Source: Eubacteriales bacterium
Lineage (GTDB): Bacteria > Bacillota > Clostridia > Oscillospirales > CAG-272
Reading direction: 5' to 3'
Assembly (NCBI GenBank): GCA_045132775.1
Contig: JBGUSX010000141.1
Coordinates: 543-64,542 of the forward strand
Length of the DNA stretch: 64,000 nt
Shown: positions 40,272 to 56,672 of the stretch, piece after piece
Layout of the letters: every line of letters starts with the position of its first letter
Position numbering within the stretch: the stretch's first letter is position 1
The notes under the pieces: generated by a model
The model's database searches: none
Told to the model about the DNA's origin: nothing
The model's input: the letters and a program-made list of their open reading frames with translations, nothing else
Position numbers and translations under genes: made by a program

Positions 40272-40406
40272 TCATTGACTCGGAGAAAAATTTACACTTT
40301 TTCTGCGTTCTAAAGTTGATATGAGCTCGATCCATATATGCGTGTAATCCTCCTTAGTCAGTTCTTTTTTCTTGAAAACACTTATAACGTGTGATTGCTT
40401 TTCCAT
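40272..40406 (-). CDS. Small 44-aa ORF upstream of the recombinase (candidate accessory/directionality factor)
   Basis: The internal ATG of ORF 40272..40496 follows a strong RBS (AAAGGAGACAATC-ATG). Sequence is MEKQSHVISVFKKKELTKEDYTHIWIELISTLERRKSVNFSPSQ. I recognise no homology. Confidence 0.35.
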   Translation of the reverse strand: MEKQSHVISVFKKKELTKEDYTHIWIELISTLERRKSVNFSPSQ

Positions 40407-40583
40407 GATTGTCTCCTTTCGGTTTACTAAATGAGTATGACGGAGAGCCTGTACACTATGCTCACCGTCGGTGTGTACGATTATAGTATAAACCATAAAA
40501 TCCCGTTTGTCATCGGCGAAACTCCGCCAAATTTTTGCCTATTTTGTGCCATTTCATTTTCACCGAAAAAAGCAAAAAAACTA

Positions 40584-40612
40584 TTGACAAACGGAACACG
40601 ATATGATAAAAT
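40584..40612 (+). promoter_or_regulatory. Sigma-A-type promoter (TTGACA-17-TAAAAT)
   Basis: TTGACA at 40584-40589, a 17-nt spacer, and TAAAAT at 40607-40612. It lies 55 nt upstream of the ATPase gene. Confidence 0.55.
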
Positions 40613-40667
40613 AAACTCGTAAGTTAGTAACTCGTGATATAATTATTAACGAAGAAAGGAGTTTTTT

Positions 40668-42062
40668 ATGTTTTACTGTCGTGAAAAAGAGCTTTTTGAA
40701 CTCAATAAACGGTATGATAACGGTAAATTTGAATGTGTCGTTGTTTACGGTCGCCGCCGTGTAGGCAAGACGGCTTTGCTCGGTGAGTTTTGCAAGGATA
40801 AACCGACTATATTTTTTTCAGCACTCAACGCAACCGCACAGGAGAATTTAGAGGCACTTTCAAAGGCGATCTATGAAAAGGATCATCCCGACGCTGCTAC
40901 TGCTCCGATTTACAACAGCTTCGATGATGCCTTTGCGGAAATCACCCGTATGGCACAGGACGAACGAATCGTATTCGTCATTGACGAGTATCCGTATCTT
41001 GCCAAAGCGGATAAATCTATTTCCTCGCGCCTTCAGCACATCATCGACCGAGTATGGCAGGACAGTCAGCTCTACCTGATCCTTTGCGGCTCGTCTATGA
41101 GCTTTATGGAGTATCAGGTGCTTGGTTATGAAAGCCCTCTGTACGGCAGAAGAACGGCTCAGTTTAAGATTCAAGCCTTGACCTACCGTGAGACTACCGT
41201 GTTCAATCAGAGTCTCACAAACGAAGAAAACGCCCTCGTGTACGGCATTACGGGCGGTGTTCCTCACTATATTAACAAGCTGAACGTTGAGAGCGACGTG
41301 GACGAGGCTCTGCTTGATAATCTTTTCAACAACGCAAGCTATCTTTTTGAAGAGCCCGAAAACCTCTTGAAGCAGGAGCTTCGAGAGCCTGCAATTTACA
41401 ATTCCATTATTTCAGCAATTGCGGGCGGTGCTTCCCATGCAAACGAGATCTCTACCAAGGTCGGTATTGAATCTGCCGTATGCGCGAAGTATTTGAAAAT
41501 TCTACTTGACCTCGGCATTCTCAAAAAGGAAACGCCGATTACCGAAAAGGCGGGCAAGAAAACCATCTACAATATCGGAGATAATTTCTTCCGATTCTGG
41601 TATCGTTTTGTGCCGCAGAATACCTCCGCCATCAGTGCGGGACGTATGCCGAAAATCTACGAGCAGTCGGTCAAGAAATATATCCCTGAATATATGGGAT
41701 TGGTATTTGAGCAGATGTGCCGCGACTATCTCCTGCGATATGACGAAAATCTTCCCATTATGTTATCTGAGGTAGGTCAGTGGTGGGGGACGGATCCCAA
41801 AGCACGGAAAGAAGTACAGATCGACATTGTCGGTACACCTGTCGAGGGCGATGAGTATATCATCGGTTCCTGCAAATACAAAAACGAGCAGATCGGCATT
41901 GACGAGTTGGAACTCTTGAAACACTATGCTTCCGTATTTGGCAAAGGATCAAAATACCACTACTATATTTTCTCCAAGAGCGGATATACAAAAGGTCTCG
42001 AAGAAAGAGCCAAGGAAGAAGGAGTTAAGCTTCTTACTCTTGACGACATCTACCGTAAATAA
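40668..42062 (+). CDS. AAA-type ATPase with C-terminal DUF234-like domain (archaeal-ATPase family)
   Basis: Walker A GRRRVGKT and Walker B VFVIDEYPYL. 464 aa, the typical length and architecture of ATPase_2 + DUF234 proteins (from memory). Confidence 0.75.
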   Translation: MFYCREKELFELNKRYDNGKFECVVVYGRRRVGKTALLGEFCKDKPTIFFSALNATAQENLEALSKAIYEKDHPDAATAPIYNSFDDAFAEITRMAQDERIVFVIDEYPYLAKADKSISSRLQHIIDRVWQDSQLYLILCGSSMSFMEYQVLGYESPLYGRRTAQFKIQALTYRETTVFNQSLTNEENALVYGITGGVPHYINKLNVESDVDEALLDNLFNNASYLFEEPENLLKQELREPAIYNSIISAIAGGASHANEISTKVGIESAVCAKYLKILLDLGILKKETPITEKAGKKTIYNIGDNFFRFWYRFVPQNTSAISAGRMPKIYEQSVKKYIPEYMGLVFEQMCRDYLLRYDENLPIMLSEVGQWWGTDPKARKEVQIDIVGTPVEGDEYIIGSCKYKNEQIGIDELELLKHYASVFGKGSKYHYYIFSKSGYTKGLEERAKEEGVKLLTLDDIYRK

Positions 42063-42068
42063 AACAGC

Positions 42069-42110
42069 GAGGTCACGCAACTGAAAAGACGGAAGCGTGA
42101 CCTCATTTTG
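42069..42110 (+). terminator. Intrinsic terminator
   Basis: GAGGTCACGC...GCGTGACCTC followed by ATTTT. Confidence 0.75.
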
Positions 42111-42188
42111 ATTTGTGTGTGAGTGTGATAGGTGTCGTAGGCGTAATGAGCAATTTAGAAATTTTGATACAGAAAACACGTATCTTAT

Positions 42189-42394
42189 GAGAATTGAGAA
42201 GACTGCCCGGGGCGGCTTGTGCAACGTGGAAAAAATGCGAAATTACGCGCGGTACGAACCTCTCTCATGCGTAATTTGAAATAGCTATACCGCTGAAAGT
42301 CCTTATTTTGCAAGAATTTTCGTGGGCAAATAAAAGAAAAAACATGGGTACTTTTCAAAGCCGATTTTTGCTCAAAAAATACCCATGTTTTTTG
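42189..42394 (+). ncRNA. Repeated structured non-coding module, copy 1 (candidate sRNA; unnamed family)
   Basis: Box GAGAATTGAGAAGACTGCCCGGGG (42189-42212). Hairpin AAATTACGC/GCGTAATTT (42240-42277) with a CCTCTCTC loop. 3' stem AAAAAACATGGGTA/TACCCATGTTTTTT (42337-42393). Confidence 0.45.
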
Positions 42395-42400
42395 ATTGTT

Positions 42401-43522
42401 TTAGTCGTATTGAACGGGGATGCAATGACGGTGCTTTTGCTTGATTCTGCAATTGATCGAATCAAAATCAAGGGGATGCCACCATGCGCTCTGCATCCAA
42501 TCCGAGATCCATTCGTGTTCGGGATGGTCGGGATCGTTCAGTATTTTCATCTTCTCATCAAACCCATACGCACCGCCGCTGTCCTCCATAGGCGCGTCAC
42601 CAATCGCCTCGGTACAGTGTGGATATGGCGTGGTACAGTTGGGAATAAATCGCTTCAGCTTGATCGTATGTATCCAACCGTCACCGAAATCGTATTCATA
42701 GTCTATCTTCTTTTGTGATTCGAAAATTTCACGAATAGTAACCGTTGTGCTGTCAATGCTTTCGAGTTTTTCGTCAAGCGCAAGCCAATCTTCGTTTTTC
42801 ATAAATCCGGGCTGTATGATTTTCATTGGTCTGCCCATACTGTCCTTTTTCAAAACAAACTGATGCAGATGACAATCGTGCCACTCAAATGCGTCTTGCA
42901 AAATCCTGTGAAGCTGATAGAAATTGAGATCACTCGGAACGACCAGCGTTCTCTTACAGGGAGTAAGGAGATCAAGCGTGACTTCGAGCTCTGCCACGTG
43001 AGCAGACTGCACGGGTGAGCCGTATCTTTCGGTAAGCGTGGCAATCAACTTTTCATAGATAAACGAATAATCTTCTTTTGCGATCATATCGTTGTTGATC
43101 CACGGCAGGTATTTCTCTTGAAACATACTGTCAGGCTCAAACAAATTCACAAAACGCTCCACGCGCTCACACGCTTTATTGCAATACGCAACGTCCGATC
43201 GAGATGCCGTTGTAGCATAGGTTAGATCACTACCGCAATCGTCAAGATATTTTTCTATAATCTCGAAAGCAACATACTCACTTTGCAATACCGCGCGAAT
43301 ACCGTCCTTCATCAGATCGGGCAATCTTGAAATACTCTTTGCCGTCAATCCGTGAAGCACAAAGCAGCACTTGGTTGCATTATTTACGGCAACCAATGTC
43401 TTGCGGCGATTCAGTATGATAAGATTCGCCGTCCAAGAAAACAGTGGATCGGTTTCGGTAGTTAATTTTTGTGGCTTCACCGCCAAAAAATCAAGCAGCT
43501 TTTTTGTACATCCTATAACCAT
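42401..43522 (-). CDS. pRiA4b ORF-3-like (MM3350-like) domain protein
   Basis: ORF trimmed to the ATG at 43522 behind AAGGAGAAAAAT. The C-terminal half has family-typical blocks LNFYQLHRILQDAFEWHDCHLHQF and YEYDFGDGWIHTIKL. Confidence 0.75.
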   Translation of the reverse strand: MVIGCTKKLLDFLAVKPQKLTTETDPLFSWTANLIILNRRKTLVAVNNATKCCFVLHGLTAKSISRLPDLMKDGIRAVLQSEYVAFEIIEKYLDDCGSDLTYATTASRSDVAYCNKACERVERFVNLFEPDSMFQEKYLPWINNDMIAKEDYSFIYEKLIATLTERYGSPVQSAHVAELEVTLDLLTPCKRTLVVPSDLNFYQLHRILQDAFEWHDCHLHQFVLKKDSMGRPMKIIQPGFMKNEDWLALDEKLESIDSTTVTIREIFESQKKIDYEYDFGDGWIHTIKLKRFIPNCTTPYPHCTEAIGDAPMEDSGGAYGFDEKMKILNDPDHPEHEWISDWMQSAWWHPLDFDSINCRIKQKHRHCIPVQYD

Positions 43523-43675
43523 ATTTTTCTCCTTCCTCGCACTCACTTCTATAATATCATTATACCACATTTTTGAAAAATTTCAACAGAAATAGCGGAA
43601 TGAGTATGAGGCATTTTCGTATAAGCAATTTTGCTTAATACTCATTTTGAAATCGCAAAAAGTTGTGTAAAAGGT

Positions 43676-43951
43676 GAAGACTGCCCGGGGGCTTGCATAA
43701 AGTGGAGAACGCACGAAATTGCGCCATATAGACTGCTCTCTTTGGCGTAAATTTTGAGAGATAACCGCCTGTGTGCCTTGAAAAAACAAGACTTTTCCGC
43801 GAGATTTTTTATGTAATTAGAACGTCCGATTTTTAGGCGGTTTTTACATAAAAAATTTATTCCTTTTTGAACGTGTAAGGGGAATTGTTGCGCAGTTGAG
43901 ACTTGGCGTATTTTTCGAAGCCGATTTTCAATCGAAAATACCCATGTTTTC
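43676..43951 (+). ncRNA. Repeated structured non-coding module, copy 2 (long variant)
   Basis: Box GAAGACTGCCCGGGG (43676-43690). Hairpin AAATTGCGCCA/TGGCGTAAATTT (43716-43754). Block TTTTTACATAAAAAATTT. 3' end AAAATACCCATGTTTTC (to 43951). Confidence 0.45.
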
Positions 43952-44060
43952 TGAATATTAGAGGGCGATAATCCGAACAAAGCAATCGGAAAATCGTATG
44001 GAGCGACGATCATCATAATAATTTCGCTTTATAACTCATTCCAAGAATGGTGCAAGTCGG

Positions 44061-44264
44061 GAGAATTGTGAAGACTGCCGGGGTGGAAAGAAAAACGGCA
44101 ATCATTGCGAAATTGCGTTATGATGAAGCATCTCTCTAACGCAATTTAATAAAGCGAAAGCTTGAAAAAGTCAGGTATTATAAGGAATTCTTCAATTTTT
44201 TAATCGCCTAAAAGAAGGGTACTTTTTGAGAGCGTTTTTTGCTCAAAAAATACCCATGTTTTTT
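44061..44264 (+). ncRNA. Repeated structured non-coding module, copy 3
   Basis: Box GAGAATTGTGAAGACTGCCGGGG (44061-44083). Perfect 11-bp hairpin AAATTGCGTTA/TAACGCAATTT (44110-44147). 3' end GCTCAAAAAATACCCATGTTTTTT (to 44264). Confidence 0.45.
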
Positions 44265-44274
44265 AATGCGGATA

Positions 44275-44303
44275 TTGACAAACAATATAACATTTGGTAT
44301 AAT
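44275..44303 (+). promoter_or_regulatory. Perfect consensus sigma-A promoter (TTGACA-17-TATAAT)
   Basis: TTGACA at 44275-44280, a 17-nt spacer, and TATAAT at 44298-44303. A second extended -10 (TGTTATAAT) lies at about 44319-44327. Confidence 0.7.
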
Positions 44304-44330
44304 AAAAATAATAAAACTTGTTATAATCAA

Positions 44331-44455
44331 CGCAAGCTTCATCTGCAAGCTCGCTTGCAAGTGAACCGAGGCAGATTGCTCCGCGAGCGTTGCGTGAAGC
44401 GCAACATGGGCGAAAGCCCGATATCGCAGAGATCGGCTCGCGTGGAGTATACAAA
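44331..44455 (+). promoter_or_regulatory. GC-rich structured 5' leader (multi-stem junction with GAAA tetraloop) upstream of the HTH-DUF3990 gene
   Basis: Closing helix CTCCGCGAGC (44379-88) / GCTCGCGTGGAG (44436-47). It encloses hairpins GTTGCG-tgaag-CGCAAC, GGGC-gaaa-GCCC and CCGAT..ATCGG. It ends 3 nt before the GGAGG RBS. Confidence 0.45.
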
Positions 44456-44468
44456 GCGGAGGCATAAA

Positions 44469-45332
44469 ATGCAAAAGCTAATCAAGAGTATAAGAGAATA
44501 TTTGGGGCTGAGCCAAGCCGACTTCGCCGAGAAGCTGGGAGTGACCTTTGCGACCATCAACCGTTGGGAAAACGGTCGTGCGATCCCCACCAAATTGGCG
44601 CAGGCAACCCTTTACGAATACTGCAAGGCGCAGGGCGTTCCCGTCTATCAGATGATCCTCGATAAGATCAGAAATGCAGCCGAGGAAATCGCACTTGAAG
44701 AAGGACGAAGCCTGCTCTACCACGGCTCAAAGTCGGGTATCGTTGGCGACATCGCTCCCAAGAGCCGCGAGATGTGCGACTTCGGTAAGGGCTTTTATAT
44801 GGGAACTGAGCCCGGACAACCGCTGACTCTGATCTGCGATTTTGAAAAATCCAAGTTCTACATCGTGTCGATCGACATGCGCGAGCTTGATGCCATTGAG
44901 ATCAAAGCCGACCTCGACTGGGCAATGCTCGTTGCCTACCACCGCGGCAGAATGGAACAGATCAGGGGCACAGCATTTTACGAGAAATACAGTCAGCTTG
45001 ATGCAGGCAAGGATCTCGTGATCGGAAGCATCGCAAACGACAGAATGTTCTACGTGCTGGATAACTTCTTTACCGGCGGCATCACCGATATGGCACTTGT
45101 CAATAGCCTTTCCGCGCTGAAGCTCGGAAAGCAGTACGTGGCGACCACCGAAAAGGCGTGTGCATCCGTTCGTGTGGAAAAGGAACTCCCTATCTCCATG
45201 ATGGAGCGCAGATTCCTTCAGGACGAGAGCGAAGCCAACCGACAGAAAGGAATCCACCTTGCAAACGACATTTGCAAGAACTACCGCCGCGAAGGAAAGT
45301 TCTACGACGAGATACTTGACGAGGCGAAATAA
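44469..45332 (+). CDS. XRE-family HTH fused to a DUF3990-like domain (putative ADP-ribosyltransferase-fold)
   Basis: ATG at 44469 behind GGAGG. HTH LGLSQADFAEKLGVTFATINRWENGR. Then LLYHGSKSG...DFGKGFYMG...GSIANDRMF blocks that I associate with DUF3990. ORF-track residues 1-81 are a spurious extension across the leader. Confidence 0.7.
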   Translation: MQKLIKSIREYLGLSQADFAEKLGVTFATINRWENGRAIPTKLAQATLYEYCKAQGVPVYQMILDKIRNAAEEIALEEGRSLLYHGSKSGIVGDIAPKSREMCDFGKGFYMGTEPGQPLTLICDFEKSKFYIVSIDMRELDAIEIKADLDWAMLVAYHRGRMEQIRGTAFYEKYSQLDAGKDLVIGSIANDRMFYVLDNFFTGGITDMALVNSLSALKLGKQYVATTEKACASVRVEKELPISMMERRFLQDESEANRQKGIHLANDICKNYRREGKFYDEILDEAK

Positions 45333-45344
45333 TAGGAGGACACA

Positions 45345-45761
45345 ATGAACGAACTCCAACTGAAAATGTGTGATATACAAGGCAGACTCTTCGAGCTGTC
45401 GGGTGCTGTCGGTTACGATAGCGTGACCTTCATCAAGGCGTTTATGACAGGTGAGGTCGCCAAAGGACTTGACTCCAAGTTCAACCGTATGCAATGGGCT
45501 GGCGAAGAATATCTCCTCGCGGAGATTGCCGATAACGCCGAGCTCACAAAGGGCGGCACCGTGTACGATAAAGAGGTGCTCTATTGGACAGGCTACCTCT
45601 ACCGCTTCTGGCACTTCGCCACAGGCGAGGATAGCAAGGACATCTACCGCCAAGCCCCTGCCGAAACCATGAGCCGCAATTGGCTCATCTTCCATACCCT
45701 CGCCCCCGAAGTGGCAATCGAGGATCTGAAAGAGATTTATAGGCAGAGAAATGGGAATTAA
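45345..45761 (+). CDS. Hypothetical 138-aa protein, operon partner of the DUF3990 gene
   Basis: It starts 12 nt after the upstream stop, behind AGGAGGA. I recognise no confident family. Confidence 0.6.
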   Translation: MNELQLKMCDIQGRLFELSGAVGYDSVTFIKAFMTGEVAKGLDSKFNRMQWAGEEYLLAEIADNAELTKGGTVYDKEVLYWTGYLYRFWHFATGEDSKDIYRQAPAETMSRNWLIFHTLAPEVAIEDLKEIYRQRNGN

Positions 45762-45776
45762 GATTAGGAGAATTTA

Positions 45777-46103
45777 ATGAATAAACAAGAAGATATTAAA
45801 AAGGCTAAAAAGATACTTGATGCCAACGATGACATCCACAAAATTGAAGAAATATTGCATGATTCCACATTGTTTCATCGCAAGGCAGATCATTTATATG
45901 ATGAATTATCAAAAAAGATTGACTATTTGCCCTATATTGAACTTGGCAAAACTGCCAATCGAATGAATGGTGATATTCCATTTAAAAATTTGAATTATAA
46001 ATATAAGCTAAACGTTTTTCGGATGATTCGCAATGCAATATTAGAGTATATTGCATATGAAACTTGTAAAAAAGAGGAATCAGAAAATGAAGGAAACCAA
46101 TGA
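45777..46103 (+). CDS. Hypothetical 108-aa helical protein (AT-rich cassette)
   Basis: RBS AGGAGAA. It overlaps the next ORF by 17 nt. Confidence 0.5.
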   Translation: MNKQEDIKKAKKILDANDDIHKIEEILHDSTLFHRKADHLYDELSKKIDYLPYIELGKTANRMNGDIPFKNLNYKYKLNVFRMIRNAILEYIAYETCKKEESENEGNQ

Positions 46104-46761
46104 TATAGAAAAATATATTTTGAACAAAGTTTTGATGTCTGCTATCGTAAATTGTTTGGAAGCGGGATTAATTTCAAAAGATGATTCTGTTGAAAAAATA
46201 AAGGAAATTATATATTCTAAAAAAGTCCTTGATCCCGATAATCTTTTCATACAAATTACGTATGTTGATTCCTTGAAATCCTCAATAGAGTTGTTGCTGA
46301 GTCATAACGCATATGATGAAGCGATTATTTTGGCGATGACTTGTGTCGAGCATATGTTGAATTATTTTTACGGTGAGTATTTTGAGCGAATTGTAGCAAT
46401 GTCGAATCGAAAAATAGATGATTTACTGAAAGGAACAAAGGTTTCTGAAAAAATCGGTGCATTATATCTTTTGACATTCAGAGAATCCTTTCCACAACAG
46501 TTGGAATCAGATATACTTGCGCTTAATAAAAAGAGAAATGACTTTATACATTACAAAACTCCTAAGATTGCCATAGATGAATGGGACGTGAAAAGCAAAA
46601 AGGACGATGAAACAGTCAAAATTGCATCGTCCGCCCTTGATTTAATTGAGAAATTAAAAGCATTTTTAAGCAATAAAGAAGATGAAATATATGGTAGCAA
46701 TCAAATTGCCCAAGAAATTTTTGAAAAACTAAAAGTAGAGGAACAAAACAATGTCAAATAA
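46087..46761 (+). CDS. HEPN-like protein (Rx4H motif)
   Basis: ATG at 46087 behind AGAGGAA. The C-terminal half has LNKKRNDFIHYKTP, i.e. RNDFIH = R-x4-H. It is all-helical and overlaps the mod start by 11 nt. Confidence 0.55.
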   Translation: MKETNDIEKYILNKVLMSAIVNCLEAGLISKDDSVEKIKEIIYSKKVLDPDNLFIQITYVDSLKSSIELLLSHNAYDEAIILAMTCVEHMLNYFYGEYFERIVAMSNRKIDDLLKGTKVSEKIGALYLLTFRESFPQQLESDILALNKKRNDFIHYKTPKIAIDEWDVKSKKDDETVKIASSALDLIEKLKAFLSNKEDEIYGSNQIAQEIFEKLKVEEQNNVK

Positions 46762-48352
46762 ATTAGAGCTTACTTGGTTTGGCAAAGACGAGCCGATGCA
46801 CATAGAGCCGAGACTTTTGATTGAAAACGCGGAGCTTTCCAATACCGCCGTGGATCCCGATACCGAAAATATATTGATTCATGGCGATAACTTACTTGCA
46901 TTAAAAGCGTTGGAAAGTAAATATGCGGGAAAAGTAAAGTGTATCTATATAGATCCCCCATATAATACGGGTTATGCTTTTGAGCATTACGATGATAATA
47001 TGGAGCATAGTATTTGGCTTCAGTTGATGCGCTCAAGATTGCAAGTTCTGCGTTTTCTATTGCACGAAACGGGTACGATATGGATTTCTCTGGACGATAA
47101 TGAGGCCCATTATCTTAAAGTGCTGTGTGATGAAATTTTTGGCAGAAAAAACTTCATTGCGGATGTTGCGTGGGAAAAGGCAGATAGCCCTCGCATGGAT
47201 GCTAAGTTGTTTTCAACACGATATGATCATACTCTTGTATATGCCAAAAATATAGATGTGGTACAGATTAATCAAGTAGTCACAGATGAAGTGCCAGAAC
47301 ACTATAACAAGGTGTCCGAGGATGGTCGTAAATATTATTTGAAACCTCTTCGCTACATGGGTGCTGAAGATAGCCGAGAAGCTCGACCAAATTTGTATTT
47401 TCCAATTACTGCACCAGACGGAACGGAAGTGTATCCTATCCGTAATGATGGAACTGATGGCCGGTGGCGTTGGGCTAAAGAAAAAGTGGAGTCAAGTCCA
47501 GAACTCTTAGAATGGGTTAATGGCAGAAATGGGTGGTCGGTATACTACCGCATTTTTGCCAATGAGTTTTCCACTCGTCCTCCAGAGACTTTGTGGAGTT
47601 ACCAATACGCAGGTAGCAACAGAAATGCAAAAGCCGAAATCAAGGCACTTTTTAAGGGCGATAAATCTTTTGATACTCCTAAGCCGGAAAAATTGATTGA
47701 AGTAATCTTAAATATTGCAACTAATCCTGGTGATCTTGTGTTGGATTCCTTCCTCGGCTCCGGTACAACTGCTGCTGTGGCACACAAGATGGGTAGACAT
47801 TATATAGGCGTTGAAATGGGTGCCCACGCCTATACACACTGCAAAGTGCGTCTTGATAAAGTTATCTCAGGTACGGATAAAGGCGGTATCACTAAATCAA
47901 CTAATTGGCAAAGTGGCGGCGGATACCGCTTCTATGAACTTGCTCCGTCGTTGATAAACGAAGATCCTTTCGGAGAATACGTTATCAATCCTGATTATGA
48001 CGCAGATATGCTTGCCGCTGCGGTTGCTCTACACGAAGGATTTACCTATCAACCAAACACGGAGATGTTTTGGAAACAATCCGTCGGTAATGAAAAATCC
48101 TATCTGTTCGTTACTACCCGTCATCTCAATTCTACCTTCCTTGACTCTATCAAGGATTCTATGGAGGATGACGAATATTTGATCATTGCTTGCCGTTCTT
48201 TTGAAAGCGGACTTGACAAGGCGTATGACCACATTACGCTCAAAAAGATTCCTCAAATGTTGCTTTCCCGTTGCGAGTTCGGCAAAACCGATTACAATTT
48301 GAACATCGTACATCCACCCGTATATGAAGATGAGGAGGACATAGATGAATAA
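46751..48352 (+). CDS. mod: Type III R-M DNA methyltransferase (Mod; N6-adenine/N4-cytosine beta-class)
   Basis: Motif IV IYIDPPYNTG precedes motif I DSFLGSGTTAAVA. 533 aa, overlapping the res gene by 8 nt. Confidence 0.85.
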   Translation: MSNKLELTWFGKDEPMHIEPRLLIENAELSNTAVDPDTENILIHGDNLLALKALESKYAGKVKCIYIDPPYNTGYAFEHYDDNMEHSIWLQLMRSRLQVLRFLLHETGTIWISLDDNEAHYLKVLCDEIFGRKNFIADVAWEKADSPRMDAKLFSTRYDHTLVYAKNIDVVQINQVVTDEVPEHYNKVSEDGRKYYLKPLRYMGAEDSREARPNLYFPITAPDGTEVYPIRNDGTDGRWRWAKEKVESSPELLEWVNGRNGWSVYYRIFANEFSTRPPETLWSYQYAGSNRNAKAEIKALFKGDKSFDTPKPEKLIEVILNIATNPGDLVLDSFLGSGTTAAVAHKMGRHYIGVEMGAHAYTHCKVRLDKVISGTDKGGITKSTNWQSGGGYRFYELAPSLINEDPFGEYVINPDYDADMLAAAVALHEGFTYQPNTEMFWKQSVGNEKSYLFVTTRHLNSTFLDSIKDSMEDDEYLIIACRSFESGLDKAYDHITLKKIPQMLLSRCEFGKTDYNLNIVHPPVYEDEEDIDE

Positions 48353-51011
48353 TAACTATTTCCCTCAATATACCACCGACTATATCAGCGGTGTTATGTC
48401 CCTGCGTAAGCCGCAGACCGCTTCTTTGAAGATACTTGAAGAAATTGTCAATAGCGTTAGTTTGCGAAAAGGAATGAATTTGAAGGCTGCATTGGGAGCA
48501 GTTCATGCTATGTATCCAATCTGCTCTGACTTTGAACGTGAGTTCATGTCGCTTACCTTTGCCTTGGCAACAGGTGTTGGTAAAACACGTTTGATGGGCG
48601 CTTTTATTGCATACCTCTATACGCAACACAATATTAAGAATTTCTTTGTTGTTGCACCTAATACCACGATTTATGAAAAGCTCAAGCGCGATCTGAGCGA
48701 TTGGAATAGCAGTAAATATGTGTTCAAAGGTCTGGGCTGTTTTAGCACACCTCCGCAGATTATTACGGATGACGATTACCGCACCAAGAATCTTGAAATA
48801 TTTGATTCAGAGGTACATATTTTCGTATTCAATATTGACAAGTTCAATAAAGAAGACGCGAATATGAAAAAGGTAAATGAGCTGCTCGGTGATTCCTTCT
48901 ACCAGTATTTGTCCAATCTGCCCGACTTGGTGTTGATTATGGATGAATCTCACCACTATCGTGCAGAAAAGGGCGCGCAGGCTCTTAACGAGCTTCACCC
49001 TTTGCTCGGATTGGAGTTGACCGCTACTCCTCTTGTTGCGAGTGGATCAAAGCAGATTCCTTTTAAGAATGTTGTATATGAATATCCTCTTTCTCGCGCA
49101 ATTGAGGACGGATATACTCGTACGCCCTTTGCGGTTACACGCTCTGATATTGATTTTTACAATTTTGGTGACGAGCAACTTGACAAAATGATGTTGATTG
49201 ACGGCATCGCTTGTCACGAAAATACAAAGCGTAAACTTGAAATGTATGCGCTAAATAATAGCACTCCCGAAAAGCCTATCCGTATTGTAAAGCCGTTTAT
49301 GCTGGTTGTGTGTAAGGATACAGATCACGCAGCTTGGGTAGAAAGCTTTATCAAGTCGGATGAGTTCCGAGATGGCGCATATAGAAACAAGACAATTACT
49401 GTTCACTCTAAGCAAAAGGGAGCGGAAAGCGAGTTTAATACTCGTTTACTCTTAGATGTTGAAAGTGAGGATAACCCTATTGAGATCGTTATTCACGTTA
49501 ATATGCTCAAAGAAGGTTGGGATGTAAACAATCTCTATACGATAGTACCGTTGAGAACTGCGGCATCCAAAATTCTCCGTGAACAGATGGTAGGTCGTGG
49601 ACTTCGCTTGCCTTACGGCGAACGTACCGGTGACAAAGATGTAGATGCCGTTATGCTTACCGCGCACGATAAATTCAATGACATTTTGGCTGAAGCTCAA
49701 AAAGGCGATTCGATTTTCAAGGCGGGCAACGTTATCAAAGCGGAGGAAATTGTTCCTGAAAAAATTACCTCTACTCAGTTGAAGATCGAATTTGAGCCGG
49801 ACAAGGTGTTAGAAACAGCTTACTCACAGACAAACATTGAGAAAAGCGAAGAAATGGATACGTTGGTAAAGAAGGCAACCGAGATTATTACCACCGAAGT
49901 ATCCAAGCACATTCAGAACACCCCTGCGCACAAGGTGGAGCCCGCGCAGGCAAAAGAAATTGTATCCACAGTTGCTGAACAACTTGGAGAGGATGAGGAT
50001 TTAGGCAACATTTTCAAGGAAAATGAAATGCCTCTTGCCGCTTGGCTGCTTTATCAGACCGAGGAAACCCACAAAGCAGCACAGAAAAAGTTCATTCCCA
50101 TTCCTCGTATTAAAGTTACAGATAGCGGGGTTGAGGAATATGTGTTTGTTGATTTTGATTTGGAGTTGTCCGATTTTACACATGTTCCGATTAAGAACGA
50201 ATTGCTTGTTCAAAATCTTGAGGATATGCAGGACAAGCAACGTATCAAAGGAGAAGCTATAGACTTCGAGGGATATAATCCCAAAAAGGTCATTCTTGAG
50301 CAGTTGCGTCAAAAGCCGGAAATCGATTACGAAAAGTGTTCTGCACTCCTATTCAAGCTTATTACACAGTTGTGCGATCATTACGAGAGCATTCACGGCG
50401 AGAACGGTATGCGAAATATCGTTATGATGTATAAGCGCGATATTGGCAACAAGATCTATAAGCAGATGATGCAAAACTTTTATTGCGAAAACGGCTTCTT
50501 GCAAGCGGAAGTAATCGGAACGCGCGACTATAATTTGCAACAGATTTATAGCTACAAGGAAAAGGTATCTTTGTTTGATAGCTTCACCGAGGATATTCGT
50601 TCCGTGCTGTTTTGCGATATCAAGCGTGGTGTTTTTGAAAATGCCAAGTTCGATAGTTTGCCAGAACTTGTTTTAGCAAGAGTATTGGAAACCGAAACCG
50701 ATGATGTTGAAAATTGGCTTCGTCCTTCTCCCCGTGAGTTTAATATCACGTACAATCACGGTCATACTTATGAACCCGACTTTGTTGTAGAAACCAAAGA
50801 TACAATCTATTTGGTCGAGGTTAAGGGAGAGGACAAGTTGCAAGATCCCGATGTTATTGCTAAAAAGAAGCGCGGTATTCAGTATTGCGAGGTTGCATCG
50901 CGTTGGGGTAAGGCAAACGGATATAAGGAGTGGAAATATCTCTTTATCCCGTCAAAGCAGATTATGCCGAACTCTTCGTTTGTGCAGTTGGCAAAGCGAT
51001 TTCAAGAATGA
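48345..51011 (+). CDS. res: Type III restriction endonuclease, Res subunit (SF2 helicase + PD-(D/E)xK nuclease)
   Basis: Helicase motif I LATGVGKTR and motif II IMDESHH. The C-terminal nuclease block is YEPDFVVETKDTIYLVEVKGEDK. Confidence 0.85.
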   Translation: MNNNYFPQYTTDYISGVMSLRKPQTASLKILEEIVNSVSLRKGMNLKAALGAVHAMYPICSDFEREFMSLTFALATGVGKTRLMGAFIAYLYTQHNIKNFFVVAPNTTIYEKLKRDLSDWNSSKYVFKGLGCFSTPPQIITDDDYRTKNLEIFDSEVHIFVFNIDKFNKEDANMKKVNELLGDSFYQYLSNLPDLVLIMDESHHYRAEKGAQALNELHPLLGLELTATPLVASGSKQIPFKNVVYEYPLSRAIEDGYTRTPFAVTRSDIDFYNFGDEQLDKMMLIDGIACHENTKRKLEMYALNNSTPEKPIRIVKPFMLVVCKDTDHAAWVESFIKSDEFRDGAYRNKTITVHSKQKGAESEFNTRLLLDVESEDNPIEIVIHVNMLKEGWDVNNLYTIVPLRTAASKILREQMVGRGLRLPYGERTGDKDVDAVMLTAHDKFNDILAEAQKGDSIFKAGNVIKAEEIVPEKITSTQLKIEFEPDKVLETAYSQTNIEKSEEMDTLVKKATEIITTEVSKHIQNTPAHKVEPAQAKEIVSTVAEQLGEDEDLGNIFKENEMPLAAWLLYQTEETHKAAQKKFIPIPRIKVTDSGVEEYVFVDFDLELSDFTHVPIKNELLVQNLEDMQDKQRIKGEAIDFEGYNPKKVILEQLRQKPEIDYEKCSALLFKLITQLCDHYESIHGENGMRNIVMMYKRDIGNKIYKQMMQNFYCENGFLQAEVIGTRDYNLQQIYSYKEKVSLFDSFTEDIRSVLFCDIKRGVFENAKFDSLPELVLARVLETETDDVENWLRPSPREFNITYNHGHTYEPDFVVETKDTIYLVEVKGEDKLQDPDVIAKKKRGIQYCEVASRWGKANGYKEWKYLFIPSKQIMPNSSFVQLAKRFQE

Positions 51012-51049
51012 TTCTGTTTTATAATTAATTTTGTATTAATCGAATTGAG

Positions 51050-52048
51050 GTGAGACAATTGGATGATGTAACCAAATCTGAGTCCAACATGTTAAATGAT
51101 AACGAATGGATGTTCCTTTTGTTTTTGATGTTGGTAGAAGATGCAAAACAAAGAAATGAACAGTGGAAATCCTTTGAGAATGAACTCATTTACAATAATC
51201 GTTTTTCGTCACATCATCCTATTGTTGACGAATTACATAAGAGACGTGAACAAGCTACCACAACTATACAGAAGGATACAATATTTTATAGGGCACGTTG
51301 TTTTGATCAAACAAGTTTTGATAAATTGGTATCATATTATTTAAGAGAAAATGGATACAAGGAAAAACAAATAAAATCGATACTTGAAGAATGGTCTGAT
51401 CAGGAAAAATTATTAACACTAATGCCACAAATATATAGCGATGTAGATTCCTTTGAAAATTCAGCACTGATAAGTGCACAGCGAAAATGGAAACGATATG
51501 TAAAATTCAAAGGGTGGGGAGAAAAGGATTCTTCTGCCCCAAACGCGGATTTGATTGGCAATGGTAGAGCAAATCCAGATCACATACGGTATCTATACCT
51601 TTGTGAAGATAAAACCACACCTGTATATGAAGTTCGCCCAATTATTGGACAGACGGTTAGTGTGGCAAAATTTAAGCTGCAGAGAGACGTTAAAGTTTAT
51701 GATTTGACGTTGGATATTCAAGATGAAATTGGCGAAGAAAAAATGCAAATGCCAAGCCTTTATAATACGATTGGTCAAATGTTTTCAAGGCCTTATAACG
51801 GTGAACCTACAAAATATCTTCCCACACAATATTTAGCTGAAGAAATAAAGAATATGGGGTTTGACGGTTTGCGGTTTAATAGTTCGCTTCATAGTGGTGG
51901 TATTAATGTAGTCCTTTTTGATCCCGAAGCTTGCAAAGCAGTATCGTCTGATTTGGTTGAAATCAAATCAATAAACATTGACATAGATCGACCTTTGATT
52001 TATACCATAGGAGATTCGAGCAAAAATCAAACAGAGGTGAAAAAATAA
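51050..52048 (+). CDS. RES-domain protein with an uncharacterised N-terminal domain of about 160 aa
   Basis: RES signature blocks GNGRANPDHIRYLYLCEDKTTPVYEVRP (R, E) and GFDGLRFNSSLHSGGINVVLFDP (S). The start is uncertain: GTG 51050, TTG 51059 behind GAGGTG, or ATG 51089. Confidence 0.65.
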   Translation: MRQLDDVTKSESNMLNDNEWMFLLFLMLVEDAKQRNEQWKSFENELIYNNRFSSHHPIVDELHKRREQATTTIQKDTIFYRARCFDQTSFDKLVSYYLRENGYKEKQIKSILEEWSDQEKLLTLMPQIYSDVDSFENSALISAQRKWKRYVKFKGWGEKDSSAPNADLIGNGRANPDHIRYLYLCEDKTTPVYEVRPIIGQTVSVAKFKLQRDVKVYDLTLDIQDEIGEEKMQMPSLYNTIGQMFSRPYNGEPTKYLPTQYLAEEIKNMGFDGLRFNSSLHSGGINVVLFDPEACKAVSSDLVEIKSINIDIDRPLIYTIGDSSKNQTEVKK

Positions 52049-52713
52049 TGGATAATAGTGGAGTGATTTATATTCTTACAAACCCGTCCTTTCCCGAGTA
52101 TGTAAAAATCGGATACGCAGATGACATCAACAAGCGCTTAAATCAACTGAATAGAAGCGAATGTATTCCTTTCGCATTCCGCGTATACGCTACATATGAG
52201 GTTAACTCTCGTCTGTCAGATTTAAAAATTCATGCGATTATCGATAAGCTGAATCCAAATTTGCGCTCAATTGACAACTTTAATGGTCAAAAGCGCGTTC
52301 GCGAGTTTTATGCTATGTCGCCCGAGGATGCCTACTCCATTCTTGAGGCAATAGCTGAAATTCACGGTTGCGCGGATAAGCTTACTCTTGTTCAGCCAAG
52401 CGAAGATGAAATTGCTGCCGAGGATACGGCACAAGAAATTGTAGCCGAGAGAACCGAGAGAATGGCTCCGTTCTCATTTACTATGTGTAATATCCCTGTA
52501 GGAGCAACATTGGAATTTTACTTGAATGCACGAGAGGCAACCGGCATCACTTGCACCGTTGCAGACGAAAAGCATGTGAATTATCAGGGACGCATTCTTT
52601 CCCTCTCTGCTCTTGCATGCGAGTTGAGTGGTAAAAGTCCTTTAGCCGGACCGCGCTATTTCAAATATAATGGCGAGTGGCTCAATGATATTCGACATAA
52701 AGCAGGAGTGTAA
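52048..52713 (+). CDS. GIY-YIG-superfamily (T5orf172/MUG113-like) nuclease-domain protein
   Basis: N-terminus GVIYILTNPSFPEYVKIGYADDINKRLNQLN. The start overlaps the RES-gene stop (TAATG). Confidence 0.7.
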   Translation: MDNSGVIYILTNPSFPEYVKIGYADDINKRLNQLNRSECIPFAFRVYATYEVNSRLSDLKIHAIIDKLNPNLRSIDNFNGQKRVREFYAMSPEDAYSILEAIAEIHGCADKLTLVQPSEDEIAAEDTAQEIVAERTERMAPFSFTMCNIPVGATLEFYLNAREATGITCTVADEKHVNYQGRILSLSALACELSGKSPLAGPRYFKYNGEWLNDIRHKAGV

Positions 52714-52715
52714 AT

Positions 52716-52907
52716 TTGAAGTTGCCCACTGAGATGTTTGGCTCGTTCGGTGTGGCGGACGGAGTCTATCCGGCGTATCACATGAACAAACTTCATTGGA
52801 TCTCGGTGCTTTTGCCCGACGCGCCCAACGACATTGTGCAGTTTCTTGTGAACGTGAGTTTTGAAGTAACAAAGGCGTTCAACAAGAGGAAAATGCAGCA
52901 AATGTAA
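52716..52907 (+). pseudogene. 5'-truncated MmcQ/YjbR-family gene remnant (last ~60 of ~115 codons)
   Basis: It encodes ...VYPAYHMNKLHWISVLLPDAPNDIVQFLVNVSFEVT, which matches the family C-terminus (PGYHMNKKHW..). No N-terminal half is present, and it abuts the GIY-YIG stop. Confidence 0.6.
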
Positions 52908-52998
52908 TTGTAATAATGATGACAAGCGAAAAGCCTGAACAAGTATGACGGTTACTTTGTTCAGGCTTTTTTGTATGACATTGTACGAATTGCGGTTT

Positions 52999-53013
52999 AA
53001 AGACTGCCGGGGG
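52999..53013 (+). repeat. GACTGCC-GGGG box, copy 4 (box only)
   Basis: AAAGACTGCCGGGGG followed by the hairpin GGGGGC-tgt-GCCCCC. Confidence 0.6.
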
Positions 53014-53393
53014 CTGTGCCCCCCCAAAACGATCGTGTATCAGACTGATTTCGGATTTGATTTTGGGTGCAAATTTCATCTCGGTATGGACGAATCCAAA
53101 ATGAATATGGGGGCTTTGAGCGCAAAGTTAGGTGATTTGCACCTAACTTTCAAATCAAAAATAGAGATTCCAAAGTGTCAAATTGATACTTTGGAATGAT
53201 ACTTTGGATATAATAAGTTACATTGCTGAGGTTGCATGTGGTATTCAAGGCGTTTTATCATCGGAATACCAGAAAGATGGTCGTGGGTTCTGTACAGGAA
53301 AGCATAGAGTGTTAAAATTGTATGCAAGCATGAGAAATACCGAGAAGTGCGCGATTGTGTCTCAGACTCATTTTAGGATTGTGCAGGATTTGA

Positions 53394-53603
53394 CAGAATT
53401 GTGAGGACTGCCCGGGGCGTGAATCGCACTCACAAAAGAACATTGGCTGGGACAAAATTGCGGCATATTGTAAGCCTGCTTTGCCGTAAAAATCTTATTT
53501 ATTCTCTCAAAAAACCTTATATTACCTTGTATTTGCTCTGAAAGAACTTATGTATTTTGAACATCGATTTTTTGAATCATTTTTACATAAAAATTTTGCT
53601 GTT
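53394..53603 (+). ncRNA. Repeated structured non-coding module, copy 5 (long variant, no Block-D terminator seen)
   Basis: Box CAGAATTGTGAGGACTGCCCGGGG (53394-53417). Hairpin TTGCGGCA/TGCCGTAA (53454-53493). Block TTTTTACATAAAAATTTT (about 53583-53600). Confidence 0.4.
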
Positions 53604-53649
53604 TTTATGTCATATATGGTGTTTGGATCACTGTGAGTAATTGAGAGAA

Positions 53650-53663
53650 GAAGACTGCCGAGG
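53650..53663 (+). repeat. GACTGCC-GGGG box, copy 6 (box only, degenerate)
   Basis: GAAGACTGCCGAGG followed by the hairpin CCGAGG-cggtcac-CCTCGG. Confidence 0.55.
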
Positions 53664-53784
53664 CGGTCACCCTCGGAAATGCATTTATACCAGACTCATT
53701 CTACCAATAAAGCTGAGATTTATAATTTGTTGCAATTTCAAAATGAGTATGGGAAGTGAAACGGTCAAGGTATAAAAAGAAAAA

Positions 53785-53822
53785 CTTCGGCTAATTTATA
53801 AGATTTCTTAAAATTAGCCGAA
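53785..53822. repeat. 38-nt palindromic hairpin element, copy A (acts as a terminator for the minus-strand oxidoreductase gene)
   Basis: CTTCGGCTAATTTataagatttcttAAAATTAGCCGAA, near-identical to 56673..56710. A T-run follows on the minus strand. Confidence 0.7.
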
Positions 53823-53836
53823 AAAAAGAGCGTTTA

Positions 53837-53877
53837 TCAACAATCGTCGGAAAAATATTTCAACAATCGTCGGAAAA
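53837..53877 (+). repeat. Two direct copies of the 18-mer TCAACAATCGTCGGAAAA, spaced 23 nt apart
   Basis: 53837-53854 and 53860-53877, read directly. Confidence 0.85.
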
Positions 53878-53888
53878 GTGATGATATA

Positions 53889-55187
53889 TTACATCTTTTT
53901 GTCATCGGTTGCGGGGTTGTCGATAAGCTGACCGTCCATGGTAAAACGCGAGCCATGGCAGGGGCAATCCCAGGTATGCTCGGCACGGTTGTATTTGAGG
54001 GCGCATCCGAGGTGTGGGCATCGGGGCGCGGTGGGCGTGAGAATGCCTATCGTTGATTCAAAGGCGTTGACAGCAAGCTGTGGGCGCATGACAGTGCGCG
54101 ATGGATCGAAAACGGCTGCGTAGGGATTCACCTTGCCTTGCACGAGGTCGCAGAGAAGTTCGGCAGCAACCATGGCGCTTGTCATACCCCATTTGTTAAA
54201 GCCCGTTGCAACGAACACGTCGGGTGTGGATTTTGCGTACTGCCCGATATAGGGAATATCGTCCAAAGTCATGCAGTCCTGCGTTGCCCATTTGCCGACG
54301 ATCTCGGCGTTTTTGTAGTGCTTGCGGGCAAAACCTTCAAGCTCTTGCCAACAGCCGCCCTTCTTGCCTGTGCGGTGTCCGCCACCACCGAGGAGCAATA
54401 GGTCTCCGTAGCTTCGGAAGGACAACCCCGTGTCCGATTCGTCCACGTACATACCGCTGACATTCTGCGCACCCTTGAGGGCTATGACATAGGAACGGTG
54501 CTGATAGAGCTTTAGGGAATATAAGCCGTGCTTGTTGAGCATCGGAAAATGAGTCGCAATAATCAGCTTTTTGAAAGCAATCTCGCCGCGGTTGGTTTTT
54601 GCCTTGTGCGGCATTAGTTCTGTGACCTTTGTATTCTCGTATATCGGCAGATCTTTTGCGATTGTATATAAAAATTTCAATGGGTGAAACTGCGCTTGAT
54701 CTTTGACGCGAACCGCGCCTGCGACAGAAAACGGAAGCTCTTTTGCATCCGAAAACTCGGCTTTGACACCGATACGGTTGAGTGTAGCTACTTCTTTTTC
54801 AATCTTCTTACGGTCATTGAGAGAATACACGTAGTTATCCCGCGTTTCAAAATCGCAGTCGATATTCTCGCAAAGTTTGGTGTATTCTTTGATTGCTTTG
54901 TTTTGTGCGTCAACATAAAGGCGCGCTTTGTCTTCCCCAAAGCGTTTTATCATCTTATCGTAAATCAATCCGTGTCCGAGCGTAATCTTTGCCGTGGTGT
55001 TTTTCGTAATGCCGCCGCAGATTTCCGTCGCTTCTGCCAGCAGACAATCCACGCCCGCGTTTTTTAGCTTATACGCGCACAAAAGCCCCGCAATCCCACC
55101 GCCGATAATTAAAACGTCGGTGCTTTTATTTTCTTTCAATGTATCAAACCGCACTCGCGGCGCGTCGGTTTCCCAAATCGATTTCAT
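53889..55187 (-). CDS. FAD-dependent oxidoreductase with C-terminal Rieske [2Fe-2S] domain
   Basis: Trimmed to the ATG at 55187 behind GGAGGA. Dinucleotide-binding motif VLIIGGGIAGL. Rieske motifs CPHLGC...CPCHGS. Confidence 0.85.
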   Translation of the reverse strand: MKSIWETDAPRVRFDTLKENKSTDVLIIGGGIAGLLCAYKLKNAGVDCLLAEATEICGGITKNTTAKITLGHGLIYDKMIKRFGEDKARLYVDAQNKAIKEYTKLCENIDCDFETRDNYVYSLNDRKKIEKEVATLNRIGVKAEFSDAKELPFSVAGAVRVKDQAQFHPLKFLYTIAKDLPIYENTKVTELMPHKAKTNRGEIAFKKLIIATHFPMLNKHGLYSLKLYQHRSYVIALKGAQNVSGMYVDESDTGLSFRSYGDLLLLGGGGHRTGKKGGCWQELEGFARKHYKNAEIVGKWATQDCMTLDDIPYIGQYAKSTPDVFVATGFNKWGMTSAMVAAELLCDLVQGKVNPYAAVFDPSRTVMRPQLAVNAFESTIGILTPTAPRCPHLGCALKYNRAEHTWDCPCHGSRFTMDGQLIDNPATDDKKM

Positions 55188-55300
55188 ATTAATCCTCCAA
55201 GGTTTAGTATGATTAGTTTTTGTCGTTTCCATAGTGGCTATACGCATATTGATGTTCCTTTTATCACACACTAAAAAGAAACGTATCTTGTGGGGGCAAT

Positions 55301-55978
55301 ATGGATATAATCAAGGTTATACTAACTGCGCTTCTTTCGGTGGCGGCGCTGTTTATCATTACGAAAATCATGGGACACAAGCAGGTGGCGCAGCTTGACT
55401 TTTTCGACTACGTTTCGGGTATCACTATCGGCTCTATCGGCGCGGAGCTTGCGACTGAGCTCGAAGAACCCGAAAAGCCGCTGATCGCGCTTTGCGTTTG
55501 GGGCGGCGCGTCGTTGATTCTCAATCTGATCGCCCATAAGCTACCGAAAACGCGCAAATATATCAACGGAACGCCGACTATCTTAATGAACGCCGGCAAG
55601 CTCTACCGAAAGAATTTGAAAAAAGCCAAGCTCGACTTGTCCGAGTTTATGCTCCTTTGCCGAGAGCAGGGATATTTCGACCTTGACGAGATACAAACGG
55701 CGGTCTTTGAGCATAACGGAAAGCTCTCTATCTTGCCCAAGGCAGCCAACCGACCCGCAACACCCGATGATTTGAAAATTACCGCCAAGGCGACGCACAT
55801 CGGAGTGGAGGTCATTATGGACGGGCGCGTGATGGGAGAAAATCTTTCCCGTATCGGTCGCGACACAAATTGGCTGACAAAGCAGTTGAAGGCGCAAGGA
55901 CATAAGGACGCAAAAGAGATATTCCTCGGCGTTTACCGTCCTGAAGAGGACAAGCTGATGCTTTATCCAAACGAGTGA
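55301..55978 (+). CDS. DUF421 (YetF-like) membrane protein
   Basis: 225 aa with N-terminal TM helices and the family-typical block GKLYRKNLKKAKLDLSEFMLLCREQGYFDLDEIQTAVFEHNGKLSILPK. Confidence 0.75.
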   Translation: MDIIKVILTALLSVAALFIITKIMGHKQVAQLDFFDYVSGITIGSIGAELATELEEPEKPLIALCVWGGASLILNLIAHKLPKTRKYINGTPTILMNAGKLYRKNLKKAKLDLSEFMLLCREQGYFDLDEIQTAVFEHNGKLSILPKAANRPATPDDLKITAKATHIGVEVIMDGRVMGENLSRIGRDTNWLTKQLKAQGHKDAKEIFLGVYRPEEDKLMLYPNE

Positions 55979-56660: not shown

Positions 56661-56672
56661 TCTTTCAAAAAG

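Follow-up and report, generated by a model that had tools for sequence, protein, structure and literature searches.

The window analysed here, a stretch of 64,000 nucleotides (nt) on the + strand (positions 543-64,542 of contig JBGUSX010000141.1, assembly GCA_045132775.1), comes from a Eubacteriales bacterium (CAG-272, Oscillospirales) and carries a mobile element that splits the spore-coat gene cotJC. Our subject is a family of repeated non-coding modules in this element, which an original prediction had described as six copies of an unrecognised module with a covarying hairpin, bracketing a defence cassette. All of the modules, and all six of the sequence boxes that mark them, lie inside the insertion:

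38404-57709, no strand assigned: 19.3-kb insertion splitting the cotJC (Mn-catalase family) spore-coat gene, recognised from empty sites in relatives.

Repeated modules of two types

The box pattern RARGACTGCC, counted against 100 shuffles of the window sequence, has six matches, all on the + strand (42198, 43676, 44070, 52999, 53403, and 53650), and none elsewhere in the 64-kb window. With 0.33 matches expected and none of the 100 shuffles reaching six, the predicted set of same-orientation boxes is confirmed, as is the GAATTG prefix before copies 1, 3, and 5, which reads GAATTG(T/A)G.

A covariance model, R1, was built from modules c1, c2, c3, and c5 with their orthologues and run over 450 kb of loci (compared loci are given L numbers below). 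It scored these four modules at 93-129 bits and their orthologues at 86-135 bits, as against 11-14 bits for c4 and c6, and for this reason we separate type A from type B, the latter scored with an nhmmer profile. Hence, the predicted six-copy family stands as far as the repeats are concerned, but it mixed two kinds of module: c4 and c6 share only the box with the others and are a related but different box-plus-hairpin module, c4 being in decay. The family as it now appears consists of four full modules (c1, c2, c3, and c5), two box-only variants (c4 and c6), and two decayed partial copies, while a fifth type A copy (R1 64 bits) occurs only in L212. The copies in the window are as follows:

42186-42398, + strand: module c1, type A (R1 128.9 bits; block-wise conservation in six orthologues), with box 42189-42214, hairpin A 42240-42277, CCTT/AAGG motif 42293-42316, and bidirectional terminator 42337-42395.
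43638-43952, + strand: module c2, type A (R1 124.3 bits; alignment of five orthologues), with ACTCATT segment 43638-43664, box 43676-43692, hairpin A 43716-43754, hairpin B 43805-43856, and terminator 43908-43950.
44033-44268, + strand: module c3, type A (R1 119.5 bits), with ACTCATT segment 44033-44045, box 44070-44086, hairpin A 44110-44147, and terminator 44217-44266.
52985-53165, + strand: module c4, type B, decaying (nhmmer type B profile E = 1.3e-28; R1 11.8 bits), with box 52999-53015, GC hairpin 53009-53023, a degenerate CAGACTGATT…AATGAATATG hairpin, and a hairpin at 53115-53159.
53363-53640, + strand: module c5, type A, the best conserved (R1 93.2 bits), with ACTCATT segment 53363-53381, box 53403-53419, hairpin A 53455-53493, and hairpin B 53548-53600.
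53641-53752, + strand: module c6, type B (nhmmer E = 1.8e-40), with box 53650-53666, GC hairpin 53658-53676, and hairpin D arms 53690-53700 and 53742-53752.
38443-38480, + strand: decayed middle part of a type A module (AAATCCTTATTTTACAAGG), about 40 nt inside the left element end (pattern search, 3 matches versus 0.03 expected).
57575-57680, + strand: decayed, boxless type A copy (hairpin A remnant plus AAATCCTTATTTTACAAGG) just inside the right element end (R1 match 57610-57677, 12 bits, E = 0.5).

Type A modules, 210-315 nt in length, run from an ACTCATT segment through the box, hairpin A, and a small CCTT/AAGG motif to an optional hairpin B and, in c1-c3, a stem-plus-T-tract terminator. 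The stem plus T-run with which copies 1-3 had been said to end was recovered as AAAATACCCATGTTTT, a terminator conserved in orthologues, and in c1 it is bidirectional and also terminates the PRiA4 gene on the - strand. The extra block noted in copies 2 and 5 was likewise found, and is TTTTTACATAAAAA, the 3' arm of the second hairpin. Type B modules, which comprise c4, c6, and another c6-like copy found in L005, combine the box with a GC hairpin and a second hairpin, CAGACTCATT…AATGAGTNTG. The start of c2 forms an inverted repeat with 53724-53750 at the end of c6 (I1 of the repeat finder, 27 nt, 89% complementary), the promoter of the HTH-DUF3990 gene (12/12 consensus) lies directly 3' of c3 at 44275-44303, and c4, whose box region has diverged in L215, is placed after the cassette terminator at 52925-52972. 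The claim that the copies fill two stretches of about 0.95 kb free of open reading frames (ORFs) held only in part: copy 1 sits instead in a third gap (42110-42400), and the two stretches also contain promoters and terminators of neighbouring genes, a 125-nt window-specific insertion, and a 41-nt piece of a Fic-type gene.

One more sequence resembling the box, CAGACTGCCC at 40255 in the promoter spacer of the recombinase gene, is not conserved in orthologues and was treated as a chance match. Separately, three copies of the 10-mer AATGAGTATG lie on the island's + strand (40430, 43599, and 53742; ~0.1 expected), and the reverse complement of this 10-mer, in the variant forms ATACTCATT and AGACTCATT, is the start of type A modules; it may serve as a promoter element, an operator, or a recombination core.

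Pairing, divergence, and distribution of the modules

Hairpin A begins 30-42 nt past the box in copies 1, 2, 3, and 5, and has an 11-bp stem and a 16-nt loop ending in CTCTC or CTGCTT, in agreement with the pyrimidine-ended loops first described. In a set of 18 distinct sequences, paralogues and orthologues together, standard pairs occupy 92.9% of cells and six of the 11 pairs have changed on both sides, values that 0 of 500 shuffles matched, while controls in which the partner was slid by 1-3 columns paired at 27-39%; the proposed AAATT…AATTT hairpin with covarying inner pairs is thereby borne out. Inner pairs 14-35 and 15-34 vary among paralogues (CG, UA, GC, and AU), and orthologues add an A-U to U-A change (c3 of L212), a G-C to G·U change (c3 of L211), and a U-A to U·G change (c5 of L209). 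In the extra L212 copy, UU/AA is replaced by CC/GG, converting the outer stem from AAATT/AATTT to AAACC/GGTTT, and the hairpin is perfectly re-paired although the box is lost. Pairing in hairpin A is kept by compensatory change, in several separate events. It is the + strand that folds, because pair 11-38, which is G·U in nine sequences, G-C in five, and A-U in four, would give mid-stem C·A mismatches on the - strand.

Divergence between the window and its orthologues is arranged in blocks. At four-fold degenerate sites of flanking genes it amounts to 0.20-0.38 in most comparisons (0.15-0.28 for orf138) and in the linkers within the arrays to 0.24-0.43, set against 0.03-0.09 for the boxes of c1, c3, and c5, 0.006-0.10 for hairpin A, and 0.05-0.14 for the terminators of c1 and c3. 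Relative to linkers or four-fold sites, boxes, hairpins, and terminators are 3-10 times slower to diverge, except for the c2 box window (0.28); the c2 terminator value (0.26) is inflated by a deletion in L214. Module c5 differs by 0.6-3.4% versus roughly 20-38% at four-fold sites, and its segment 53496-53640 by 0.014. The modules are under block-wise purifying selection, and because neutral-rate linkers adjoin constrained blocks within a few hundred bases, this points to function rather than mere recency.

Relatives were sought with exact-pattern scans, which diverged members could have escaped. Among 185,579 genomes, one per species, the scan returned 10 loci, all from metagenome-assembled genomes of uncultured gut Clostridia or Oscillospiraceae and all representing orthologous positions of the same element at 85-91% identity. 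Scans of viral contigs yielded one true relative (L005) beside ~140 other loci that were chance matches, the metagenome scan yielded one (L161), and L198 and L199 were added through contigs with PRiA4 homologues. BLAST of both arrays gave no match to plasmids and a single 33-nt match (E = 7e-3) to phages. The orthologue alignment extends to ~15% divergence, because more distant relatives sit in module-free contexts: PRiA4 homologues of ≤82% identity have other surroundings without modules, and cotJC elements with a 78-89% identical recombinase have different cargo and no modules. As far as these scans show, the family occurs in a single sub-lineage of one element. Within it, the modules remain unchanged beside differing defence cargo, such as a type I restriction-modification (R-M) system with Fic in L198 and other genes in L005, so the suggested partnership of an immunity RNA with the type III R-M/RES/GIY-YIG genes is unlikely.

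Possible structured RNAs or DNA junctions

We tentatively read the modules as a new, lineage-specific family of + strand structured RNA modules, most likely transcribed, an interpretation that we consider quite possible though short of probable. We infer both their transcription and what they do, and the kind of known thing with which they would most likely be grouped is multicopy structured non-coding RNA borne on mobile elements. In such a scheme, the full modules c1, c2, c3, and c5 would be made as + strand RNA, in which an unpaired conserved 5' box (AGAATTGTGAAGACUGCCCGGGG) would be followed after ~30 nt by an 11-bp hairpin with a 16-nt loop ending CUCUC, then by a small CCUU/AAGG hairpin and, in c1-c3, by an intrinsic terminator. 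They would be sibling RNA elements between independently promoted defence cassettes, the terminator of c1-c3 would stop transcription between cassettes, and the box and hairpin loop may be contact surfaces for a protein or RNA partner.

Several features are consistent with this RNA reading. The terminator stems and T-tracts of c1 and c3 are conserved or compensated in orthologues, and the modules are co-oriented with the ATPase, HTH-DUF3990, and R-M transcription units, + being the strand of nearly all cargo genes. Neither paralogues nor orthologues share a conserved ORF, and substitutions have no third-position bias. As in the original prediction, no known RNA family was matched: Rfam 15 gave no match anywhere in the window at gathering thresholds, and at E up to 10 over 41900-54100 it gave noise of 17-23 bits versus thresholds of 35-85.

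Other observations weigh against the RNA reading. No sigma-A-type promoter was recognised upstream of c1-c3, in an island whose gene promoters match 11-12 of 12 consensus positions (11 for PRiA4, 12 for the HTH gene), so transcription of these copies would need read-through or an unrecognised sigma factor. Only c5 has a possible promoter, TTGTAC-17-TAAAAT at 53291-53318, shortly before homology with L209 sets in (~53327); c5, the best-conserved copy, is without a canonical terminator. In whole-module RNAalifold runs, the only helices shared are hairpin A and the terminator, and the box is outside any conserved helix, and folding energies are unremarkable (z = -1.6 to -2.2 for c1-c3 and -0.25 for c5+c6). 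Duplex energies between the loops and the ribosome-binding regions of 17 island gene starts are within the background of random windows, and the idea that the CU-rich loops pair with Shine-Dalgarno sequences is unsupported. Compensatory change and G·T tolerance would, in addition, equally suit a hairpin in single-stranded DNA. From the predicted transcribed RNA of about 200-280 nt, then, the compensated + strand hairpin is upheld, and independent transcripts are unproven, given the missing c1-c3 promoter.

The nearest known RNAs are the small sibling RNAs that some Firmicutes encode in multiple copies and whose loops are CU-rich, such as Listeria LhrC1-5 and the streptococcal csRNAs. The modules resemble them as diverged paralogues in one locus, with a C/U-rich hairpin loop, no coding potential, and an intrinsic terminator at the end of three of the four full modules. 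They differ in that c1-c3 have no recognisable promoter, in their greater length (210-315 nt), in a conserved 5' box without counterpart, in being confined to a mobile element, and in that their loops have no complementary ribosome-binding target among the island gene starts. If the modules are RNA, they would constitute a new family of structured RNAs linked to a mobile element that stacks defence systems in abundant uncultured gut Clostridia, and the invariant box with the compensated, CU-rich-loop hairpin would offer a handle for finding the partner.

Some further assignments were considered and set aside. A riboswitch or attenuator was dropped because the promoter of the downstream gene lies beyond the c3 terminator, and iterons or partition sites because the intervals between copies range from hundreds of bases up to 9 kb. 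A type III toxin-antitoxin RNA of the ToxI kind, with tandem repeats of ~34-45 nt upstream of the toxin in one transcript, does not fit dispersed units of 210-315 nt, and fails because the units carry their own terminators and the HTH gene promoter follows the c3 terminator. A type I toxin-antitoxin locus, which calls for a conserved small hydrophobic ORF with an overlapping antisense RNA, was rejected, as the small ORFs of the modules are not the same from one paralogue to the next and indels disrupt them in orthologues; two such ORFs, a hydrophobic 30-codon one antisense to c3 and a 28-codon one in c5 (4/4 substitutions non-synonymous), are not conserved across orthologues. Readings of the box and ACTCATT motif as sigma-54, sporulation-sigma, or alternative sigma-A promoters were, by eye, inconsistent across copies. 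The window contains no tRNA or tmRNA genes.

Unlikely, though the main rival to the RNA reading, is a role of the modules at the DNA level, as conserved anchors or recombination sites for the swapping of defence cassettes, similar to attC sites or hotspot flanks, with the box or AATGAGTNTGG as a possible recombination site. Such a role is suggested by L005, in which a 2.1-kb ATPase-plus-partner cassette stands between two c6 copies sharing 83% identity, the left one being window-like throughout and the insertion starting right after AATGAGTCTGG; it is, however, the only clean cassette between duplicated modules that was observed. The right edge of the hypervariable cargo falls in the right array at three places (52914 in L005, ~53000-53074 in L215, and ~53327 in L209), whereas the left edge is the orf138 stop codon (45764), a gene boundary without a module, and the modules accordingly do not bracket the defence cassette symmetrically, as had been thought. 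Nearly all genes between modules are stand-alone known or candidate defence systems (PDC-S27, PDC-S63, PDC-M42, type III R-M, and PDC-S57), L212 has gained one module and L214 has lost a terminator with its spacer, and the 27-nt inverted repeat (89%) ties the c2 start to the c6 end; yet no type A or type B copy occurs inside any variable cassette. Domain scans (Pfam on 20 island and flanking proteins, PADLOC for defence systems) found a serine recombinase as the sole recombinase, with an attP unlike the boxes, and there is neither an integron integrase nor any RYYYAAC/GTTRRRY core. Moreover, homology anchors alone would not yield neutral linkers beside invariant blocks and compensated stems.

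In the L005 cassette itself (8084-10008), an AAA-type ATPase of 380 amino acids is encoded with a partner of 261 amino acids, and each cassette end has its own promoter or terminator; by eye, the pair resembles two-gene defence systems of the PARIS or OLD type.

The comparison with integron attC sites runs in both directions. Shared features are imperfect hairpins with conserved outer and covarying variable inner stems, strand-specific folding, a single orientation, and a position between promoter-equipped or stand-alone cassettes, many of them for defence, including the one L005 cassette between non-identical module copies. The cotJC element differs in having no IntI tyrosine recombinase among the scanned proteins and no RYYYAAC/GTTRRRY cores in its hairpins; its modules do not follow every cassette and are absent from the left edge of the variable cargo, and type A modules include a terminator (c1-c3) and a box 30 nt from the hairpin. 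We regard it as improbable that the modules are the cis-acting junctions of an undescribed integron-like system of defence-cassette exchange in Clostridia, one that would lack the integron integrase, have its hairpins and box read by the serine recombinase or an outside enzyme, and ride on an element excised in sporulation. To our knowledge, integrons are essentially absent from Firmicutes, and modules that act as DNA would reveal how these bacteria exchange defence cassettes.

Boundary sequences are also known from phages: the hyperplastic regions of T4-type phages have promoter/stem-loop boundary modules, which act through homology, and lambdoid phages have boundary sequences of their own. 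As in those cases, short conserved non-coding units with terminator-like stem-loops stand here between variable small cassettes and could guide modular shuffling. The modules of the cotJC element differ in their compensated non-terminator hairpin, separate conserved box, and neutral-rate linkers.

Rather unlikely, in our judgement, is that the modules are leftovers of cassette turnover, that is, duplicated 3' ends, terminators, and untranslated pieces with no role beyond termination, whose conservation reflects recent spread of the element. Decay is visible in c4 and in the two degenerate copies at the element ends, the ATPase gene is cut to an 11-codon remnant in most orthologues, related cotJC elements with other cargo are entirely module-free, and a 41-nt piece in distal c4 (53168-53208) is ~90% identical to Fic-type coding sequence in other elements. 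Recent spread alone is difficult to reconcile with divergence that is block-wise within a few hundred bases, the linkers being neutral and hairpin A and most boxes 3-10 times slower, or with compensatory and wobble changes that keep the stems in paralogues and orthologues alike; even the extra L212 copy, boxless as it is, has a perfectly re-paired hairpin. The Fic-family matches to 53168-53208 are at 6595-6634 of L198 and also in L208, L211, L214, and L222, and the likeness suggests that this segment may be debris of an earlier cassette.

A hairpin acting in single-stranded DNA and read by an enzyme encoded elsewhere, in the manner of REP sequences, IS200/IS605 ends, a rolling-circle origin, or an oriT-like site, seems highly improbable to us. 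The strand-specific fold that tolerates G·T, the fixed box-hairpin distance of 30-42 nt, the lack of an evident promoter, and several dispersed copies in a single orientation would all suit it. No HUH nuclease, relaxase, Rep, Y1 transposase, or RAYT domain was found, however, among the 20 island and flanking proteins scanned, the 64-kb window holds no further copy, and every copy found in 185,579 species genomes stands at an orthologous position in the one element, in contrast to REP or MITE families. Finally, att duplications from serial integration at one site deserve almost no credence: the direct, same-orientation repeats do lie inside an integrated element with a serine recombinase, but the 70-nt box regions match the reconstructed attP no better than shuffles in five of six copies (the sixth has a 10-nt AT-rich match), the true junctions are at 38404 and 57709 in cotJC, no integrase lies between copies, and compensatory hairpin evolution is not expected of such scars, so the original prediction was right to set them aside.

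The cotJC element and its other features

In four loci (L145, L147, L150, and L151, strains with an identical TrkA protein), empty sites join window position 38403/38405 straight to 57710. The insertion leaves the 3' part of cotJC at 38212-38403 and the 5' part at 57710-58131, and the intact gene in L147 encodes 203 amino acids. The principal genes of the element are listed below:

38639-40198, - strand, left element end: large serine recombinase (Resolvase, Recombinase, Zn_ribbon_recom, and DUF4368 domains in Pfam).
Cargo: ATPase_2/DUF234 (PADLOC PDC-S27).
Cargo: PRiA4_ORF3/DUF6933 (PADLOC PDC-S63).
Cargo: HTH-DUF3990 plus orf138 (PADLOC PDC-M42A/B).
Cargo: mod and res (type III R-M).
Cargo: RES-domain protein (Pfam RES only).
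Cargo: T5orf172 (PADLOC PDC-S57).

The HEPN label earlier given to part of this cassette was not reproduced by Pfam or PADLOC. Homologues of the recombinase, 74-97% identical, form more than 120 distinct clusters in metagenomes and adjoin cotJC fragments wherever the context was checked, with very different cargo. The insertion has the layout of a sporulation-gene intervening element: it interrupts the gene precisely, one end carries a serine recombinase, and relatives have the gene intact. Known elements of this kind include skin in sigK, SPβ in spsM, and gin in gerE (PMC4191935, PMC5595907, PMC5025042). Like them, the cotJC element is precisely inserted in a spore-coat gene of the mother cell and has a large serine recombinase at one of its ends, and its empty site is intact in sister strains; like gin, it has R-M systems and no phage genes. 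It differs in its target and in a cargo of stacked defence systems; by analogy, it may be excised in the mother cell during sporulation, which would restore the gene. The key intervening-element papers that were text-searched contain no mention of cotJC as a target and no repeated non-coding modules, and the gin paper has no mention of "non-coding". Whatever their mode of action, the modules are placed in a family of elements that splits cotJC, and with this family a spore-coat gene joins the sporulation genes that excisable elements interrupt.

The ATPase_2/DUF234 gene (40669-42028) is full-length in the window alone, and most orthologous elements join 40668 to 42029, retaining an 11-codon in-frame remnant, MLLTLDDIYRK, with its promoter, start, stop, and terminator. 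The element also has a complete Mn-catalase gene of its own at 56814-57476 (+), 36% identical to the intact host CotJC, which could act as a substitute or decoy for it. The 125-nt GC-rich insertion at 44326-44450, in the 5' untranslated region of the HTH-DUF3990 gene, folds at -50 kcal/mol with TATA on both sides; it is absent from 5/5 orthologues, matches nothing in Rfam, and occurs nowhere else in the window or the compared loci.

An extended -35 region, TGACAAAC, is common to the promoters of the ATPase (40584-40596), HTH-DUF3990 (44275-44285), and recombinase (40268-40278, -) genes, and an inverted copy, CCGTTTGTCA, lies at 40503-40514 within a nearly invariant 100-nt non-coding stretch (40455-40560); a repressor encoded by the element may use these sites as operators. 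The recombinase gene is immediately preceded by a conserved ORF of 44 codons (40272-40406, -), which has a good ribosome-binding site and is a candidate recombination directionality factor; L218 and L221-L223 have an ORF of 48-53 amino acids in the equivalent position. The FAD-oxidoreductase gene ends in a terminator (CTTCGGCTAATTT…AAATTAGCCGAAG, 53781-53829) of which a ~90% identical duplicate lies further inside the element, at 56661-56713. Upstream of the studied region, an ORF of 2400 codons spans 19330-26532 (+).

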